DNA of 10,019 nucleotides from a virus (lineage: Duplodnaviria; Heunggongvirae; Uroviricota; Caudoviricetes). Below the pieces are notes generated by a model. That model searched no databases. It had not been told where the DNA came from and worked only from the letters and a program-made list of their open reading frames with translations. Below are positions 766-7,784 of the stretch, piece by piece; positions within the stretch are counted from its first letter, which is position 1, and the number at the start of each line of letters is the position of its first letter. The position numbers were made by a program, and so were the translations under genes. The stretch lies in IMG/VR virus record IMGVR_UViG_2579778989_000006; one strand, 5' to 3'.

Positions 766-1125
766 ATGCTCATAGATTTGGTTTTACCTTACCCGCCGAC
801 GGTGAACACTTACTGGCGACGCCGTGGCAGCACATATTTTATCTCGGAGGAGGGAAAGCGTTATCGCCGGGCTGTGGCGCTTATTGTTCGCCAGCAGCGG
901 CTGAAATTAAGCCTGTCCGGAAGGCTGGCGATAAAGGTGATTGCAGAGCCACCGGATAAGCGTCGTCGCGACCTGGACAATATCCTGAAAGCACCGCTGG
1001 ATGCGCTGACGCATGCGGGAGTGTTAATGGACGATGAGCAGTTTGATGAAATCAATATTGTACGTGGCCAGCCAGTATCAGGTGGACGGCTGGAGATAAA
1101 AATTACAGAGGTGGGGTGTGCATGA
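766..1125 (+). CDS. rusA: RusA-family crossover junction endodeoxyribonuclease (Holliday junction resolvase)
   Basis: 119-aa ORF; AAGAGGTGA Shine-Dalgarno 5-6 nt upstream of ATG 766. Sequence pattern LPYPPTVNTYW...RRRDLDNILKAPLDALTHAGVLMDDEQF...RGQPVSGGRLEIKITE matches the RusA fold signature (acidic DxD catalytic region, C-terminal GGRLEI). Position in the nin region upstream of Q is as expected. Confidence 0.85.
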   Translation: MLIDLVLPYPPTVNTYWRRRGSTYFISEEGKRYRRAVALIVRQQRLKLSLSGRLAIKVIAEPPDKRRRDLDNILKAPLDALTHAGVLMDDEQFDEINIVRGQPVSGGRLEIKITEVGCA

Positions 1126-1805
1126 ATAACCAGTATTTACAGTTTGTTCGTGAGCAACTCATGATTGCCACAGCGGATCTCAGTGGGTCGACAAAAGGCC
1201 AGCTGGAAGCCTGGCAGGAAAATGCCCTGTACGATACAGGGCGTTACAGACGCAAAAAAATTCGTTACCGCGATGAGGTAACCGGAAAAATGATCACGCG
1301 GGATAACCCACCGATCCCGGGTAAACAATCACTGGCGAAAGGCTCATCAATTGCGCTGGTCAGTCCGGTTGAGTTTGCAACATCATCGTGGCGGCGTGCC
1401 GTTCTGGAACTGGAAGAGCATCAGAAGGCGTGGTTACTGTGGTGCTACAGTGGAAATGTTTGCTGGGAAGATCAGGTCACCATAACACAGTGGGTATGGA
1501 GTGAGTTTAAGGCTCAATCCGGTACCAGAAAAATAGCGGGGAAAACGCAGGAACGCCTGAAGAGGTTGATCTGGCTGGCTGTACAGGATGTGAAGAGCGA
1601 GCTGGTCGGGCGTGAGACTTATGAACATCAGGCGTTGGCGGTGTTGATGGGAGTTGCTAAATCTACATGGACAACAACACACAGGCCTCACTGGTTGGCT
1701 ATGCGGGGTAGTGCAGAGGGGCTGGACAGGGATGCGCTTATTTCAGTAATGCGGGTACGATCACGGCAACAGTCGCTTAATTTAGAACCATATCTTGCAA
1801 AATAG
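1122..1805 (+). CDS. Late-gene antitermination protein candidate (Q position); family not verified
   Basis: 227-aa ORF from ATG 1122 (track gives GTG 1116); GAGGTGG Shine-Dalgarno upstream; ATG overlaps the rusA stop (ATGA), implying translational coupling. Sits in the canonical Q slot: immediately after rusA and immediately before a promoter-like element and a strong intrinsic terminator. I do not see the lambda-Q zinc-finger motif, so the assignment is positional. Confidence 0.55.
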   Translation: MNNQYLQFVREQLMIATADLSGSTKGQLEAWQENALYDTGRYRRKKIRYRDEVTGKMITRDNPPIPGKQSLAKGSSIALVSPVEFATSSWRRAVLELEEHQKAWLLWCYSGNVCWEDQVTITQWVWSEFKAQSGTRKIAGKTQERLKRLIWLAVQDVKSELVGRETYEHQALAVLMGVAKSTWTTTHRPHWLAMRGSAEGLDRDALISVMRVRSRQQSLNLEPYLAK

Positions 1806-1823
1806 AACTGAAGAGCATATATT
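1795..1823 (+). promoter_or_regulatory. Candidate late promoter (pR'-like): -35 TTGCAA, 17-bp spacer, -10 TATATT
   Basis: TTGCAA at 1795-1800, TATATT at 1818-1823, 17-nt spacer; located at the 3' end of the Q-position gene and ~50 bp upstream of a strong terminator, as for lambdoid pR'/tR'. Confidence 0.35.
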
Positions 1824-1872: not shown

Positions 1873-1900
1873 AAAAAACCGCCGCCAGGCGGTTTTTTTA
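1873..1900 (+). terminator. Rho-independent terminator (tR'-like), potentially bidirectional
   Basis: AACCGCC (1877-1883), loop GCCA, GGCGGTT (1888-1894): a perfect 7-bp GC-rich stem followed by a run of seven T; preceded by an A-tract. Confidence 0.7.
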
Positions 1901-2342: not shown

Positions 2343-2780
2343 GTGAGCCTACCAGAGTTACGCTTACTGATCCATGAAAATACTGTAAAAATAAACAGTG
2401 TTGATTTAATCAACGCTGATTGCCTGCATTTTATTCAGTCCCTGCCTGATGATTCCATTGACCTGATTGTTACCGATCCGCCGTATTTCAAAGTGAAACC
2501 CGAGGGCTGGGACAATCAGTGGAAGGGCGACGATGATTACCTGAAGTGGCTGGACCAGTGTCTGGCTCAGTTCTGGCGGGAGCTGAAACCTGCTGGAAGT
2601 CTTTACCTGTTCTGTGGACATCGCCTGGCATCTGATATTGAAATCGTGATGCGTAAACGTTTTAATGTGCTGAACCATATCATATGGGCGAAGCCGTTCA
2701 GACCTTGGAGCGCATGCTGTTGTTGCTCACTGGTATTACGAACGGTTTGCTCACGGGGATGTACACATATTAATTGTTGA
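2343..2780 (+). pseudogene. N6-adenine DNA methyltransferase, 5' remnant (truncated)
   Basis: N-terminal part has the catalytic motif IV DPPY (IDLIVTDPPYF) and conserved flanks (SVDLINADCLHFIQSLPDDS, LKPAGSLYLFCG), but the ORF ends after 145 codons in a Cys-rich tail (SACCCCSLVLRTVCSRGCTHINC) with no FxGxG AdoMet-binding motif. Base composition switches to strongly AT-rich at ~2765. Functional methylases of this class are roughly twice this length. Confidence 0.7.
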
Positions 2781-2788
2781 TGTTAATA

Positions 2789-3130
2789 TTACGTCATGTT
2801 ATTAATACAAAATTGCAACGCATCATTCAAAGTATTATAATTATCATTTGTTGCATTTATTATGCCAACATTCCTTGTTGGTCTTCCTTCCGTTGAATAT
2901 TCTATCCAGAATGAGCCGGTGTATTTTGACATTCTATATGTTGCGAATTCTTTTGCATTAATTGGTGGTTTGGTGCCGTTGAGATCCAATATATAACCAC
3001 TTTCTTGAATTGTCTTAGAAAGGCAATTGATTATTTCATTTGTCGATATTTCACTGTCGATTTGAGGATGATTCACAATTAGCCCCATGCAGAGGATGCT
3101 TGAAATTATTATAAAAATATTTTTTATCAT
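2789..3130 (-). CDS. Hypothetical 113-aa protein with N-terminal signal peptide or membrane anchor, on an AT-rich island
   Basis: Minus-strand ORF in a markedly AT-rich segment. N-terminus MIKNIFIIISSILCMGLIVNHP is a hydrophobic signal or anchor sequence; mature part is Asn/Thr/Ile-rich with two Cys (possible disulfide). Opposite orientation to the surrounding phage late genes; no strong Shine-Dalgarno. Not recognised as any known family. Confidence 0.55.
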   Translation of the reverse strand: MIKNIFIIISSILCMGLIVNHPQIDSEISTNEIINCLSKTIQESGYILDLNGTKPPINAKEFATYRMSKYTGSFWIEYSTEGRPTRNVGIINATNDNYNTLNDALQFCINNMT

Positions 3131-3402
3131 GATGTCTGTTTTTGTGAACTTTTAGATAGAATGTCTGCTGTGGAGATATGTATACCTCTTGTGCTCATTT
3201 ATTTCAATAGATAGTTGAGCACTCATTGTGCTAATGGAAGAAGTTTTTTAATATGGAGTATCATCAAAATCACACAATAGTGATTAATATTGCTATTAGA
3301 TAAAGAAGTATCGCTAACTTTGATTTTGTTGAATTTGTTTTTAATAAAAGTTAGTGTGGTTTATATAGCAGGCATATGCATGCTGTTTTTAAAGAAACTT
3401 AT

Positions 3403-3477
3403 TGCCCCTTTAGCCCTAATGGTCAGAGCGAGAGGTTAATAACCGCCAGGTCGCCGGTTCAAACATGGCAGGGGCAC
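3403..3477 (+). tRNA. tRNA-like element, probably a degenerate tRNA pseudogene (tRNA-Ile2/LAU-like body)
   Basis: Perfect 7-bp acceptor stem (TGCCCCT 3403-3409 with AGGGGCA 3470-3476) and a TTCAAAC T-loop, but the D stem and anticodon stem have multiple mismatches, the anticodon loop is TTAATAA, and no CCA is encoded (CGAA follows). Overall resembles the E. coli tRNA-Ile(LAU) gene as I recall it. Confidence 0.35.
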
Positions 3478-3480
3478 GAA

Positions 3481-3557
3481 GCGCTGTTAGCTCAGTTGGA
3501 CAGAGCAATTGCCTTCTAAGCAATCGGTCACTGGTTCGAATCCAGTATGGCGCACCA
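3481..3557 (+). tRNA. tRNA-Arg (anticodon UCU)
   Basis: Manual cloverleaf: acceptor GCGCTGT/ATGGCGC (two G-U pairs), D arm GCTC-AGTTGGACA-GAGC, anticodon arm ATTGC-CTTCTAA-GCAAT (anticodon TCT), variable loop CGGTC, T arm ACTGG-TTCGAAT-CCAGT, discriminator A and encoded CCA. 77 nt. Confidence 0.85.
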
Positions 3558-3558
3558 T

Positions 3559-3633
<75 letters not shown>

Positions 3634-4110
3634 TAGAGGATTATGGGACAGTATAGTGAGCATTTTTCTGCGTTACTTTTCATCGGTAAAAATAAGCATA
3701 CAACAACTATTTATGCTGGCATTAGCTATGATAGTTATTGGTTTTCTCGGAATGTGTTTATTTGTTTACTATATTCTTATCGATAACTGATATTTTTGAT
3801 ATGAATACGGAGTGGTACAAACAAAAATATGAATTCGCTATGGAATCAGGATGTGTAATAAAAATAATAGTCACTAAGTTATAGTTTTTTTTAAAATGTT
3901 AAAAACATCACATTTCATTATGTTGGGCACTGGAGAATACCCAGTCGTTTTGTTAAAAATAATTACGCATGGTGAATCCCCCTAAGCGGAGGGGCAATCA
4001 GCAACTGGTGTTTTGTCACCGACCCTTATCCTTTCTGTGCGGGTTCAGGTGCTGATACTGAACTCACCGGGAGGCACCCGGCACCATGCAAAATTGTCTA
4101 CACTACCACT

Positions 4111-4140
4111 GTAAAAAGCCCCTCTCCGGAGGGGCTTTTC
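4111..4140. terminator. Bidirectional rho-independent terminator hairpin
   Basis: GCCCCTC (4118-4124), loop TCCG, GAGGGGC (4129-4135); A-tract upstream (4113-4117) and T-tract downstream (4136-4139). Confidence 0.6.
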
Positions 4141-4239
4141 TATGGGCAAAAAAAAGCCCGCAGTGAGTGGCGGGCGGGTCGCATGAATATACATCAGGTA
4201 TTTTTATTATCGTGTTCTGATTTTTACCATCTGTGATAA

Positions 4240-4265
4240 GGCTGCGCAACTGCGCGGCCTTTTTC
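4240..4265 (+). terminator. Rho-independent terminator ~95 bp upstream of the esterase gene
   Basis: GGCTGCGC (4240-4247), loop AACT, GCGCGGCC (4252-4259): 8-bp stem with one G-U pair, followed by TTTTT (4260-4264). Confidence 0.6.
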
Positions 4266-4358
4266 GTTTTGCGGGCTGCGGTTCTCCTCTTTTGATTCTC
4301 CGTGTAGCCGGACCGTGGCCCGCAACTGTTGAGGAAAATCCCGGAAAGGGGAGGAATA

Positions 4359-6293
4359 ATGGCATTTAAACACTATGACGTGGTCAGGGCGGCGTCGCCG
4401 TCAGACCTTGCGGAGCGACTGACACAAAAACTGAAGGAAGGCTGGCAGCCGTTTGGCAGTCCTGTGGCTATCACGCCTTATACACTGATGCAGGCCATTG
4501 CCGCAGAGGGTGATGTGACCACGCCTGTGGTTGTGCCCGACACAGGGGCTGGTGGCTCTCCGGGAGTGGCTACCACTGAACCGGAGTATTACTACGTTAT
4601 TCCCCTGGCCGGGCAGTCGAACGGTATGGCCTATGGTGAGGGGCTTCCTCTGCCGGAGACCTATGATCGCCCTGACTCCCGTATTAAGCAGCTGGCCCGT
4701 CGCAGCACTGTGACGCCGGGTGGTGATACCTGTGCATACAATGACGTTATTCCGGCAGACCACTGTCTGCATGATGTTCAGGACATGAGCGCACTTAACC
4801 ATCCTCATGCAGACCTGAGTAAGGGCCAGTACGGGACTGTCGGTCAGGGGCTGCATATTGCCAAAAAACTGCTGCCTTATATCCCGCAGAATGCCGGGAT
4901 TCTTCTGGTGCCCTGTTGCCGTGGCGGGTCTGGTTTAACCGTGGGTAATGACGGCACGTTCAGCGAAACGTCTGGCGCATCGGCAAATTCAGCCCGCTGG
5001 GGAGTGGGTAAACCGCTGTATCAGGATTTTCTCTTCCGTACAAAAGCGGCGCTGTCGAAGAACCCGAAAAACAGGCTTCTGGCCGTGGTATGGATGCAGG
5101 GGGAAAATGATCTTGCGGACGGCAGTCAGCAGCACAGCGGCCTGTTTACCACTATGGTGCAGCAGTTCAGGGCTGATATGGCTGCATATTCTGCACAGTG
5201 TGTTGGCGGAAGTGCTGGCTCGGTGCCGTGGATTTGTGGTGACACCACGTATTACTGGAAGAATCTTAACGCCGATAAATATGAGGCGGTATATGGCGGT
5301 TACAAGGGCAGGGAAGCACAGAATATTTTCTTTGTTCCTTTTATGACGGACAGCAGTGGTGCAAACACACCCACCAACAATCCGTCAGAAGACCCGGATA
5401 TTCCGGCATCAGGATATTACGGTGCAGCTTCCCGGACGTCGGCAAACTGGACGTCAGCAGACCGTGCGAGCCATTTCAGCTCATGGGCACGCAGGGGGAT
5501 TATCTCTGACCGTCTGGCCTCAGCGATTCTTCTCCATGCAGGACGAACGGCTGAACTGGTGGGGGGACAGGTTGTGACGCCGCCGGATGAGAAGCCGTCA
5601 CCGGACACACCACCAACACCGTCAACGGACGGGAAATCAGTGACAACGCTGCTTTCTTACCGTGCAGCAGAGTCAGATGGTTTACTGACTCCGCAGGGAT
5701 GGGGAGCTGAAGGAGGGAGTGCAGCGGTAGTTGATGATGCAGGTGCTGCGGGAGGTAAGGCGCTGAGGCTGACCAAACAGGCAGGAAGGTCTTCGTGGTT
5801 TATGCAGCATGATGCCGGTAATGGCGCAGACCTTCTGGAGAAAGGCGGGCTTATCAGCTGTCGTTTTAAAGTTGATGGTGTGCTGTCTGCTAACCGTTAT
5901 GCACTGGCGCTGTACTGGCCGGTTTCTTCATTGCCTCAGGGTGTCACACTGGAAGGTAATGCCGGTAACAATCTGCTGGCGTCGTTTTACGTACAGAGCG
6001 ATGCCACAGACCTCAACGTGATGTACCACAAGGGTAACGCTGACCAGAACACGAAGCTGGGGTCATTCGGCGCATTTGACAACGAATGGCATACGCTGGG
6101 CTTCCGTTTTGCCGGTAATAACAGCATTCAGGTGACGCCGGTGATTGATGGTCAGGATGGTGCACCGTTCATGCTGTCGCAGTCTCCGGTAGGTTCTTTT
6201 GCGGCAGACAAATTACGTGTAACGGATATCACAAAAGCGGCGACGTATACGGTGCTGATTGAAAGTATAACAGTGGAAGTGAATAACCCGTAA
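4359..6293 (+). CDS. nanS-p: Prophage-encoded sialate O-acetylesterase (NanS-p type): DUF1737-like N-terminus, SGNH/SASA esterase domain, C-terminal beta-rich domain
   Basis: Track ORF 4329-6293; preferred start ATG 4359 (GGGGAGGA Shine-Dalgarno 5-8 nt upstream). N-terminus MAFKHYDVVRAASPSDLAERL...GWQPFGSPV is the DUF1737-type module; YYVIPLAGQSNGMAYGEG holds the GQSN catalytic-serine block of SGNH esterases; a Pro/Thr-rich linker (PPDEKPSPDTPPTPSTDGK) precedes a C-terminal ~200-aa domain. Location downstream of the phage tRNA array matches nanS-p genes of EHEC Stx prophages. Confidence 0.85.
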   Translation: MAFKHYDVVRAASPSDLAERLTQKLKEGWQPFGSPVAITPYTLMQAIAAEGDVTTPVVVPDTGAGGSPGVATTEPEYYYVIPLAGQSNGMAYGEGLPLPETYDRPDSRIKQLARRSTVTPGGDTCAYNDVIPADHCLHDVQDMSALNHPHADLSKGQYGTVGQGLHIAKKLLPYIPQNAGILLVPCCRGGSGLTVGNDGTFSETSGASANSARWGVGKPLYQDFLFRTKAALSKNPKNRLLAVVWMQGENDLADGSQQHSGLFTTMVQQFRADMAAYSAQCVGGSAGSVPWICGDTTYYWKNLNADKYEAVYGGYKGREAQNIFFVPFMTDSSGANTPTNNPSEDPDIPASGYYGAASRTSANWTSADRASHFSSWARRGIISDRLASAILLHAGRTAELVGGQVVTPPDEKPSPDTPPTPSTDGKSVTTLLSYRAAESDGLLTPQGWGAEGGSAAVVDDAGAAGGKALRLTKQAGRSSWFMQHDAGNGADLLEKGGLISCRFKVDGVLSANRYALALYWPVSSLPQGVTLEGNAGNNLLASFYVQSDATDLNVMYHKGNADQNTKLGSFGAFDNEWHTLGFRFAGNNSIQVTPVIDGQDGAPFMLSQSPVGSFAADKLRVTDITKAATYTVLIESITVEVNNP

Positions 6294-7226: not shown

Positions 7227-7784
7227 ATGAACCATGAAGAAATGAATCAGCGCTTCAGTCGCCTGGAAAATGAAATTGCTGAACTGAATAAAAAACTGTC
7301 GACGCTGATGCCTTCTGAAGATGAAAAAAAACGCCGCGATGAGCAGTTTGCTGCGTTTGACGATTATTGTCGGAAAGTGATGAGCAGAAATCTCGCAGAG
7401 TGTTTCAGTATTCATAATGATAATTTCAGTGACCTGGAATGGGAGTGTAACCGGCCATCCTTTGTTGTATCCGGTGATGCCGGGAAAATAACCATCACAG
7501 AAAATGGGAAACTAACACCTCCATCGCACCAGCACAGTGAGGAGCTCATTGAATTTGCCATTGATTACCTGAAGAACAATAAAAAGCAGGGGCTGATGAA
7601 GCGCGTTGGCCGTTGCATGGGATATCTGCAGATAGCTGCTGAGATTGAAGCGCTGGCCAGTGGTGCGGACAAGGATGCAGTTGTGCGGGAGGCTCTTCTT
7701 CGTGATTTTGATAATCCGCCCTTTAAAAAAGTGCCGGCTTACTGGTTTCATCCAGGACTGACTTATCTTAAAGGACGTATATAA
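7227..7784 (+). CDS. Hypothetical 185-aa soluble protein located between holin and endolysin
   Basis: ATG 7227 lies 3 nt after the holin stop (TGA 7221-7223) with GGGGAGAG Shine-Dalgarno inside the holin 3' end, implying translational coupling. N-terminal predicted coiled coil (NQRFSRLENEIAELNKKLSTL), no hydrophobic segment, four Cys. No family recognised. Confidence 0.6.
   Translation: MNHEEMNQRFSRLENEIAELNKKLSTLMPSEDEKKRRDEQFAAFDDYCRKVMSRNLAECFSIHNDNFSDLEWECNRPSFVVSGDAGKITITENGKLTPPSHQHSEELIEFAIDYLKNNKKQGLMKRVGRCMGYLQIAAEIEALASGADKDAVVREALLRDFDNPPFKKVPAYWFHPGLTYLKGRI

Follow-up and report, generated by a model that had tools for sequence, protein, structure and literature searches.

The window, by which we mean the whole stretch of 10,019 nucleotides of viral DNA analysed here, is very probably the late region of a stx-negative E. 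coli lambdoid prophage, in which a slot holding a rare cassette is followed by a conserved small RNA (sRNA) module; we see it as an alternative-cassette relative of the Stx phages and not as the product of a recent stx deletion. The interval between the last tRNA and nanS-p (3634-4358) consists of two unrelated parts, i.e., a moron slot (3634-3948) and a regulatory-RNA module (around 3937-4271). Most phages of this type share this conserved module; in the Stx1 and Stx2 phages among them, it comes after stxB. The hairpins found between the tRNAs and nanS-p are best read as a convergent sRNA pair and one presumably insulating terminator, and not as the debris of an empty toxin slot. The convergent sRNA pair at this site is already described in Stx phages (Tree et al. 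2014). The features are collected in Table 1.

Table 1. Features of the late region, with the evidence for each assignment.
Feature	Positions	Strand	Evidence
Antiterminator Q gene	1122-1805	+	PF06323, E 2e-87
Candidate late promoter pR', TTGCAA-17-TATATT	1795-1823	+	pattern scan only
tR' hairpin, terminator-like on both strands	1873-1898	+	pattern scan only
Decayed tRNA-Ile2(CAU) copy, phage pseudo-tRNA	3403-3478	+	alignment to intact tRNA
tRNA-Arg(TCT)	3481-3557	+	ARAGORN; Rfam tRNA 68.7 bits
tRNA-Gly(TCC), left border of slot	3559-3633	+	ARAGORN; Rfam tRNA 62.7 bits
Actual variable (moron) slot with AT-rich 315-bp cassette	3634-3948	.	blastn homology breaks; GC ~0.29
Candidate small membrane-protein gene, MLALAMIVIGFLGMCLFVYYILIDN	3656-3790	+	conserved ORF
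STnc100-family sRNA gene (EcOnc27/sRNA103; PasD-related)	3937-4147	+	Rfam RF02076
AsxR/AgvB-type anti-sRNA gene, rare allele, ~65 nt	4148-4212	-	Rfam end-to-end alignment; custom covariance model
Candidate anti-sRNA promoter	4221-4249	-	read from sequence; below pattern-scan threshold
Third hairpin, intrinsic terminator: 10-bp stem 4238-4261, then TTTCGTTTTG	4238-4271	+	pattern scan, folding
nanS-p type sialate O-acetylesterase gene, right border (ATG 4359)	4359-6293	+	Pfam DUF1737 + SASA + DUF6645

The Stx-type organization of the late region recognized in the earlier note was confirmed, with Q, pR'/tR', methylase, tRNAs, nanS-p, P21-type holin, lysozyme, and Rz in this order. At the 99.9%-identical locus of E. 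coli JKHS016 (NZ_CP147059), RefSeq names the first gene 'bacteriophage antitermination protein Q', and the candidate pR' and tR' are assigned as such from their location after Q. The methylase gene and the tRNA array lie where they had been placed, but the methylase is not intact, being a truncated pseudogene, and the array amounts to two tRNAs and one decayed tRNA-Ile2 copy. This copy is called by neither ARAGORN nor Rfam, and its T arm and anticodon loop are altered compared with its intact counterparts in the Stx2a phage L002 and strain M3, to which it aligns. On the other side of the interval, nanS-p is preceded by a ribosome-binding site (GGAGGA at 4347-4352) and is annotated in RefSeq as 'SASA family carbohydrate esterase'. 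Between tRNA-Gly and nanS-p, no ORF exceeds 52 codons, and the interval is thus devoid of any ORF of toxin size, as had been noticed. The succession of an AT-rich and a GC-rich half was also recovered, with a GC content of 0.29-0.30 across 3650-3949 and of 0.47-0.57 across 3950-4399.

The same interval had been described as an empty slot of ~725 bp, which does not match the limits that we found by blastn. Indeed, homology with the TerB prophage L003 ends at 3633 and picks up again at 3949 at 99% identity, and homology with the Stx2a phage L002 ends at 3558 and picks up again at the same position. The real slot is therefore 3634-3948 and is filled by a cassette, while the right-hand ~410 bp of the supposed slot are the conserved convergent sRNA gene pair, located downstream of stxB in Stx phages. 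We sampled 80 STnc100 sites in IMG/VR, 54 of which have an upstream tRNA. At these 54 sites, STnc100 is separated from the last tRNA by 58-93 nt (16 sites), 248-850 nt, or ~1400-1425 nt (seven sites, with stx at four and TerB+DUF3927 at three); truly empty slots measure 58-93 nt. TerB+DUF3927 is the commonest recognized cargo at the IMG/VR sites. Depending on the locus, the slot contains nothing, the 315-bp cassette, TerB+DUF3927, a TolA-like gene, or stx. At other loci, an iraM-like gene is found just past the sRNA module. Among 5426 complete E. coli genomes, 24 contain the 315-bp cassette, which is absent from all phage records searched and from the 80 IMG/VR sites. The lineages that bear it are 82-99% identical and have diverged jointly with their flanks; in L006, the cassette and its flanks align co-linearly (78.6% identity over 3437-4456), which indicates that the arrangement is old.

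The plus-strand member of the module is a gene of the STnc100 family, predicted to encode an RNA of ~180-210 nt. Its match to RF02076 reaches 140.8 bits for a gathering score of 47 (E 8e-32) and covers model positions 1-206 of 206, with nearly all helices paired in the cmscan alignment. The closing helix is formed by GCAUGGUG (3967-3974) and CACCAUGC (4082-4089), and the terminator extends over 4113-4140; the minimum free energy (MFE) fold (z -3.6) recovers both independently of cmscan. A match was present at the equivalent position in all 13 comparison loci, which include the Stx2a phages L002 and L011, the Stx1 phage L012, and the stx-negative phages L013 and L014. The pattern scan found no strong sigma-70 promoter for STnc100 or for the anti-sRNA; for STnc100, the conserved TTTGTTAAAA (3949-3958) could serve as an extended -10. 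In Sakai and EDL933, homologues are discrete Hfq-associated RNAs (PMC4104026, PMC12711010). STnc100 has been placed downstream of stx2 (PMC12711010, PMC12370729) and PasD/STnc100 upstream of an esterase (bioRxiv 10.64898/2026.05.13.724894), and the established function of the family members is limited to overexpression effects on fimZ and espA (PMC12711010). RefSeq leaves the sRNAs at this locus unannotated. We rejected the idea of a tRNA derivative, as no tRNA-model match (ARAGORN, Rfam) overlaps STnc100. In L005/L006, the first 48 nt of STnc100 are joined to the 3' half of tRNA-Ile, a hybrid that we interpret as the scar of a recombination event at a short similar stretch.

The minus-strand member begins 1 nt after the STnc100 match, on the opposite strand, at the moron site. 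Rfam aligns 4149/4151-4212 (minus strand) end to end with AsxR (22.2 bits, threshold 63) and with AgvB (13.9 bits, threshold 56); since 4212-4148 misses the gathering scores of both AsxR (RF02703) and AgvB (RF02702), we do not file it as either of them proper. The equivalent position in L004 and L012 gives AgvB at 56.6 bits, at the threshold. Using a custom covariance model built from seven other variants, this allele being left out, the anti-sRNA was the best match in the window, over the full model length (25.1 bits, with a rough E of ~1e-4). Its terminator is made of a stem (4175-4170/4161-4156) and a T8 run (4155-4148); the stem displays compensatory changes among variants, which keep the start, the body, and the -10 region. 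The RNA, of a predicted ~65 nt, ends with a Rho-independent terminator, and its 3' region is partly conserved (CAUGC and a hairpin, with a different stem). This 3' region departs from the conserved ~42-nt block that EcOnc01-03 are said to share. The anti-sRNAs of Tree et al. 2014 are 51-60 nt long with variable 5' ends (PMC4104026). Of the 5426 complete E. coli genomes, 18 carry the present allele, and none of them has it annotated. Its candidate promoter combines a -35 TTGCGC (4249-4244), a 17-nt spacer, and a -10 TAAAAA (4226-4221) after TGG, and the other variants present a similar geometry with TAAAAT or TATTAT as the -10. The 5' end presumably resembles the ompF ribosome-binding region, which prompted us to try MicF, and only MicF, as a sponge target; this candidate was discarded, the duplex (-14.1 kcal/mol) lying outside the seed and being equalled by 11% of shuffles.

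The scan for terminators, i.e., for a GC-rich stem-loop followed by a T-run on the transcribed strand, retrieved plus-strand sites at 4121-4134 and 4238-4261 and a minus-strand site at 4175-4156 followed by T8; its count of four sites, compared with 1.9 +/- 1.4 in shuffles, is weak evidence alone. The fourth one (3929-3945) was dropped, its fold being no more stable than those of shuffled sequences (z -0.65). The first hairpin folds at -23.1 kcal/mol (z -5.4) and the third at -19.2 kcal/mol (z -4.4), so that both plus-strand terminators claimed earlier (4111-4140 and 4240-4265) proved to be stable hairpins with a T-run. The 65-nt minus-strand RNA has an MFE of -13.3 kcal/mol (z -2.2) and a centroid, containing the terminator hairpin alone, of -12.5. 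The minus-strand terminator that had been proposed at 4156-4175 also holds, with its hairpin and T8, its conserved position, and its compensatory stem changes. All three hairpins keep their position in loci whose identity is otherwise 70-99%, and in L002 all three lie between stx2B and nanS-p. On the other hand, they cannot be considered as stacked terminators occupying a slot, since two of the three are the 3' ends of the STnc100 and anti-sRNA genes. The third hairpin is nearly invariant in these loci, Stx1 and Stx2a phages included, and its shape and conservation suggest an insulator role. It shares positions with the likely -35 element of the anti-sRNA promoter, and this overlap could explain part of its conservation. 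Considered as the end of a known sRNA, it gave in a lax Rfam search only weak matches of terminator type (Leu_leader, SorY, MicC, and OmrA-B), all far below threshold, and this candidate was rejected.

The earlier suggestion that nanS-p relies on Q read-through agrees with two observations: the sigma-70 pattern scan gave no good match in 4262-4358, and nanS-p is induced 1-2.4 log by mitomycin C in Stx2a lysogens (PMC10462455). Stx2a phages carry the same three hairpins, and it is plausible that the terminators keep nanS-p and the lysis genes isolated up to the moment when Q acts. From homology, we infer the following mechanism. In the lysogen, both sRNAs would be made from their own promoters and would act in trans via Hfq, the variable 5' end of the anti-sRNA sequestering a host sRNA. 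The three terminators and tR' would halt unmodified RNA polymerase and keep nanS-p and the lysis genes off; after induction, the Q-modified polymerase coming from pR' would pass all the terminators.

One could argue that the hairpins have no role other than that of stacked terminators protecting the late genes and that the sRNA-like sequences are unexpressed relics. All three do have terminator geometry, neither sRNA has a detected strong promoter, and this late region does harbor decayed genes (the methylase pseudogene and the pseudo-tRNA), which means that the sRNA genes might be silent as well. We nevertheless consider this explanation improbable. Indeed, STnc100 is full length, with internal helices that are needless for a terminator; a minus-strand terminator cannot insulate plus-strand late genes; the minus-strand element retains its start, body, and -10 region across variants; and in EHEC, uninduced cultures express the homologues, which are bound by Hfq (PMC4104026). 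Concerning the origin of the locus, the earlier note hesitated between a never-converted relative and a toxin-deleted derivative. In the second case, stxAB would have been recently lost from a Stx-converting ancestor, leaving 3634-4358 as a scar. A backbone 84-93% identical in pieces to Stx1, Stx2a, and Stx2c phages, and the presence of the sRNA module that normally follows stxB, speak for such a loss. However, stx is absent from the window: tblastn of Stx1A/B and Stx2A/B against the whole window returned chance matches only (E at least 0.4), and no ORF of the interval is longer than 52 codons. When the stx genes and their flanking sequences were used as blastn-short queries, matches stayed at chance level, without any gene or flank remnant or deletion scar, and the 90 nt upstream and 86 nt downstream of stx2AB in L002 have no counterpart in the window. 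The tRNA set also differs (Arg+Gly vs Ile/Met-Arg-Arg), and the cassette exists in 24 genomes in versions that are 82-99% identical. Moreover, stx occupies only four of the 80 sampled IMG/VR STnc100 sites, the stx-less condition being thus the common state. A cassette that is rare, diverged, and without stx gene or flank remnant makes a recent deletion unlikely; the toxin-deleted derivative is already largely refuted, and we give it very little credit. An alternative-cassette relative is the favored origin.

As for the cassette itself, its sole conserved feature is a hydrophobic ORF (3656-3790) of 44 codons from a GTG, or of 25 codons from the ATG at 3713. The cassette could be a working moron (3634-3948) producing a membrane peptide of 25-44 aa, e.g., of a toxic or exclusion type, co-transcribed with the tRNAs, a possibility that we regard as doubtful. 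In its favor, the ORF and its stop codon (TGA/TAA) are retained in seven of eight lineages at 82-99% nucleotide identity, conservation falls away directly after the stop, and strains M1 and M3 keep only the ORF-bearing 170 bp of the cassette. The matching protein clusters are only six, from E. coli, and in a few genome annotations they are labelled 'putative membrane protein'. The start codon differs between lineages (GTG/ATG/TTG). Against this possibility, the substitutions display no third-position bias, so that coding is not proven; neither start has a convincing Shine-Dalgarno at a good distance; a frameshift breaks the M3 copy; and we found no domain in a Pfam search and no homologue outside E. 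coli. The observed conservation could also stem from an RNA or regulatory element located after the tRNAs. We rejected a DUF3927 remnant, having seen no evident similarity by inspection and nothing with Pfam; the DUF3927 gene fills this slot in other prophages. Two other ORFs were dropped, one (3643-3786, 47 codons) because a 1-nt indel breaks its reading frame in ST866 and O158, the other (3738-3884) because it is not conserved. Bringing both RNA and ORF together, we tentatively suggest, with somewhat less than even confidence, that 4212-4148 may be a functional, uncatalogued anti-sRNA allele. Through its distinct 5' end (CGAUAAUAAAAAUACCUGAUGUAUAUUC), this RNA would act as a sponge for some host sRNA that is neither GcvB nor FnrS. 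As the anti-sRNA promoter would be interlocked with the conserved terminator at 4238-4261, Q-driven late transcription would switch the anti-sRNA off, and the 44-codon ORF would perhaps be an unannotated small membrane-protein moron.

The main value of this analysis is a correction for a widespread class of E. coli prophages. The borders of the toxin/moron slot are the last tRNA and the start of the STnc100 module (3949 here), and the sRNA module acts as a fixed right-hand anchor beside which the cargo is swapped. For studies of sRNA sponges and small proteins, two modest leads emerge, i.e., the rare anti-sRNA allele and the small ORF. The understanding of Stx phages is unchanged. The locus is an ordinary one whose architecture was already known, the anti-sRNA allele being a rare one.

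Tree et al. 2014 described the convergent EcOnc27 and AsxR sRNAs 3' of stx2B, at the moron site, and equivalent convergent pairs in Sp3, 4, 9, 10, 11, 15, and 17 (PMC4104026). As in the window, the EcOnc27/AsxR (EcOnc02) pair of Sp5 in O157:H7 Sakai is located downstream of Q/pR', after the slot and before nanS-p. Both pairs are convergent, with back-to-back terminators split by an A/T run, and associate a plus-strand member of the STnc100 family with a short minus-strand RNA having a variable 5' end and a Rho-independent terminator. Unlike Sp5, the window has no upstream stx, and its minus-strand allele is longer (~65 nt vs 51-60 nt), with a different stem sequence. The internal variable hairpin of its STnc100 (around 3996-4035) is also unlike that of the Stx2a phage copy. 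STnc100 and the related PasD of EPEC have been described immediately upstream of a sialate esterase gene, which is also the location found here (bioRxiv 10.64898/2026.05.13.724894). With AgvB (RF02702) and AsxR (RF02703), the window RNA shares a 5' CGAUAA, an internal CAUGC, a GC hairpin with its U-tail, the position, and an A-rich ARN-like 5' stretch (AAU AAA AAU, 4208-4200), but it is devoid of the GcvB-target mimic of AgvB. At a larger scale, phages of the 933W, Sp5, and H-19B type and stx-negative relatives such as vB_EcoP_phi296 display the same order as the window, i.e., Q, tR', methylase, tRNAs, slot, sRNA module, nanS-p, pinholin, endolysin, and Rz. The window differs from the Stx-converting phages by the absence of stxAB, another tRNA complement, a truncated methylase, and a cassette foreign to phage records.

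The late region is laid out as in Stx-converting phages, as the earlier note had claimed. Indeed, phage records, many of them of Stx1a, Stx2a and Stx2c phages, match the window piecewise at 84-93% identity, and the gene order (see the table) agrees with this layout; it was drawn from Pfam scans and from the RefSeq annotation of the E. coli JKHS016 prophage, which is 99.9% identical to the 10-kb window over the stretch tested. We also confirmed that the interval between tRNA-Gly and the esterase gene holds no ORF of toxin size (52 codons at most) and that it is AT-rich, then GC-rich (GC around 0.29 over 3650-3949, and 0.47-0.57 beyond). The three hairpins noticed there were all recovered by a terminator pattern scan (4 sites versus 1.9 +/- 1.4 expected). 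The first and third fold at -23.1 kcal/mol (z -5.4) and -19.2 kcal/mol (z -4.4), and the minus-strand RNA has a centroid that consists of nothing but the terminator hairpin (-12.5 kcal/mol). A fourth match (3929-3945) was discarded, its fold being no better than those of shuffled sequences.

Coordinates of the features (window numbering, except for the tandem copies)
Feature	Coordinates	Strand	Place or remark	Source
DUF968, RusA, Q (PF06323)			first genes in order	RefSeq/Pfam
Promoter-like site	1795-1823		overlaps Q end; fits pR'	
Hairpin	1873-1898	both	terminator-like; fits tR'	
Small ORF, then DNA methylase (truncated pseudogene)	2343-3400 (methylase with the AT-rich block)		after Q	RefSeq/Pfam
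AT-rich block with minus-strand ORF	ORF 2789-3130	-	between methylase pseudogene and tRNAs	RefSeq/Pfam
tRNA-Arg(TCT), tRNA-Gly(TCC)	tRNA-Gly end 3633		after AT-rich block	
Variable slot (cassette)	3634-3948			
Cassette small ORF	3656-3790		44 codons	
STnc100	3937-4147	+		Rfam scan
Anti-sRNA element	4212-4149	-		
Candidate anti-sRNA promoter	-10 TAAAAA 4226-4221; TTGCGC 4249-4244	-	-10 preceded by TGG; 17-nt spacing	
Third hairpin	4238-4261	+		
SASA/DUF6645 esterase (nanS-p type), then DUF1378, DUF826	esterase ATG 4359			RefSeq/Pfam
P21-type holin, 185-aa ORF, lysozyme, Rz	185-aa ORF 7227-7784		last genes in order	RefSeq/Pfam
Tandem STnc100 copies	3784-3988 and 4039-4247 of L007 (strain M3)		also at loci L023, L030, L037, L050, L078, L093	

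The Stx-type architecture stands; the reading of these hairpins as stacked terminators in an empty slot is not supported: Rfam and a covariance model identify them mainly as the ends of sRNA genes. STnc100 (RF02076) is present at full length, scoring 140.8 bits (gathering score 47), and the first plus-strand hairpin is the terminator of this gene. The closing helix GCAUGGUG/CACCAUGC is recovered in its minimum free energy fold (z -3.6). STnc100 occupies the equivalent place in 13 of 13 comparison loci, and the loci that bear it are Stx2a phages (where it starts around 75 nt past the stx2B stop codon), a Shigella Stx1 phage, stx-negative phages and E. coli prophages with other cargo. Upstream of it (3905-3960), the blocks TCACA(A/T)TTCA and TTTGTTAAAA are conserved in all contexts. 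Since the -35-like hexamer varies with the adjoining cassette (TTGACA after stx2, TTGACT after TerB, TTGGGC in the window), the cargo may determine how strong the sRNA promoter is.

On the minus strand, the stretch right after STnc100 reaches the Rfam threshold for AgvB (56.6 bits) in strain ST866 (L004) and in the Shigella Stx1 phage (L012), with an AsxR score of 46.8 bits in the former. The window stretch aligns end to end with AsxR at 22.2 bits and with AgvB at 13.9 bits, both below threshold, and it is the top match in the window (25.1 bits, rough E 1e-4) of a covariance model built from seven other variants, the window allele being left out. Because of this homology and of the compensatory changes among variants in the stem (GCCCGC/GCGGGC, GCCCGCG/CGCGGGC, GCCCGAA/TTCGGGC, GCCCGG/CCGGGC), we infer that the minus-strand hairpin terminates a short sRNA gene convergent with STnc100. 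Judging from its sequence, the TTGCGC/TAAAAA site is probably the promoter of this anti-sRNA; its geometry is similar in other variants, with TAAAAT or TATTAT as -10. The third hairpin, which contains the candidate -35, is nearly invariant in all module-carrying loci and has a T-run on the plus strand only; its Rfam matches go no further than a generic likeness to terminators. Of 5426 complete E. coli genomes, 18 have the window allele of the anti-sRNA, where it is unannotated. MicF was tried as its sponge target without success. In strain STEC299 (L009 2058-2375), a minus-strand iraM-like anti-adapter gene lies between STnc100 and nanS-p, replacing the anti-sRNA and the third hairpin.

The toxin slot had been thought empty; it is small, yet not empty. 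With blastn, homology to a TerB+DUF3927 prophage (L003) is lost at 3633 and regained at 3949 (99%), and homology to a Stx2a phage (L002) ends with tRNA-Arg at 3558 and is back at 3949; these breakpoints therefore define the variable slot. The last tRNA lies 304 nt from STnc100, versus 58-93 nt at truly empty sites (at least 16 of the IMG/VR sites listed). Neither a coding remnant of stx (tblastn of the four Stx subunits, E >= 0.4) nor a remnant of its flanks was found in the window, where stx genes and immediate flanks give chance matches only. The 315-bp cassette is rare: out of 5426 complete E. coli genomes, 24 carry it, with 81-99% identity between versions; it is absent from phage records and was found at 0 of 80 IMG/VR STnc100 sites among the matches listed. 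The arrangement is old, because in a related prophage (L006) cassette and flanks align co-linearly at 78.6% identity. The IMG/VR survey covered at least 80 sites and is biased by the exact 24-mer required; in this sample, being stx-less is the common state. A tRNA lies upstream at 54 of 80 sites among the matches listed. There, the spacing of last tRNA and STnc100 forms three groups: besides the truly empty sites, a group at 248-850 nt, where TerB+DUF3927 is the commonest recognised cargo, and at least 7 sites around 1400-1425 nt (4 with stx, 3 with TerB+DUF3927).

The first 160 nt or so of the cassette are far better conserved than the remainder and hold the small ORF. Its start codon is GTG, ATG or TTG among variants, its stop remains TGA or TAA, conservation collapses directly past it, and there is almost no variation in the hydrophobic core MLALAMIVIGFLG.CLF.YYI..DN. 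Against coding stand a frameshifted copy in strain M3, substitutions without third-position bias, the lack of a good Shine-Dalgarno or of any domain found in the protein, and protein matches confined to six clusters, all from E. coli, of which a few bear the name 'putative membrane protein'. A small-protein gene is a tentative, rather doubtful candidate here.

Tandem STnc100 pairs, around 250 or 484 nt apart, occur in several prophages and viral contigs; strain M3 carries a TolA-like gene in the slot. In two related prophages (L005 2455-2545, and L006 at the same coordinates), the first 48 nt or so of a STnc100 copy (TTTGTTA..GCATGGTGAATCCCCCTCAGCGG) are joined to the 3' half of the tRNA-Ile gene, which suggests that the tRNA/cargo block formerly had STnc100 modules at either end and that these recombined where there was a short similarity. 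This hints that the module anchors the recombination by which cassettes are exchanged. Elsewhere in the window, only Pfam N6_N4_Mtase positions 1-85 of 221 are left of the methylase, its 3' part being replaced by the AT-rich block (GC 0.25-0.34), also found in ST866. The ORF of this block (113 aa; 2789-3076 in RefSeq) looks like a second, antisense moron; its N-terminus resembles a signal peptide, and no Pfam domain was found. Directly upstream of tRNA-Arg, a decayed phage tRNA-Ile2(CAU) copy (3403-3478; anticodon loop CTCATAA changed to TTAATAA, T arm disrupted) went undetected by ARAGORN and Rfam. The 185-aa ORF between the pinholin and lysozyme genes is hypothetical in RefSeq, with no Pfam domain. 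The tR' region (1821-1940) gives sub-threshold Rfam matches to STnc370 (-, 41.3 bits versus 54) and isrK (+, 20.4 bits); a StxS-like or 6S-like small RNA might be what the short transcript from pR' to tR' represents.

In the lysogen, STnc100 and the anti-sRNA would most likely each have a promoter of their own, and their transcripts would stop at back-to-back terminators and work through Hfq. The tR', STnc100 and 4238-4261 terminators would halt unmodified polymerase ahead of nanS-p and the lysis genes; upon induction, Q-modified polymerase would read through them. The proposed dependence of nanS-p on Q gains support from its induction by 1-2.4 log with mitomycin C in Stx2a lysogens (PMC10462455), because Stx2a phages carry the same three hairpins, and from a pattern scan giving no sigma-70 match of at least 9/12 between 4262 and 4358. 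Late read-through would cross the anti-sRNA promoter antisense and, speculatively, may silence the anti-sRNA in lytic growth.

In conclusion, what the earlier note observed is confirmed, and its interpretation is supported in part. The interval belongs to an architecture that is known and published, to which it adds a rare anti-sRNA allele and an orphan small ORF, and nothing else. Tree et al. 2014 (PMC4104026) report that morons are tolerated past the Q-antiterminated pR' and that sRNA genes lie there in convergent orientation. EcOnc27 and EcOnc02 (AsxR) lie 3' of stx2B in Sp5, and seven other Sakai prophages are organised likewise; the anti-sRNAs, 51-60 nt long and variable at the 5' end, antagonise host sRNAs, AgvB acting on GcvB and AsxR on FnrS (PMC4104026). 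STnc100 has been equated with EcOnc27/sRNA103, downstream of stx2 (PMC12711010), and placed 75 nt past the stx2 operon (PMC12370729); PasD, directly upstream of an esterase gene, is related to STnc100 (2026 preprint, bioRxiv 10.64898/2026.05.13.724894).
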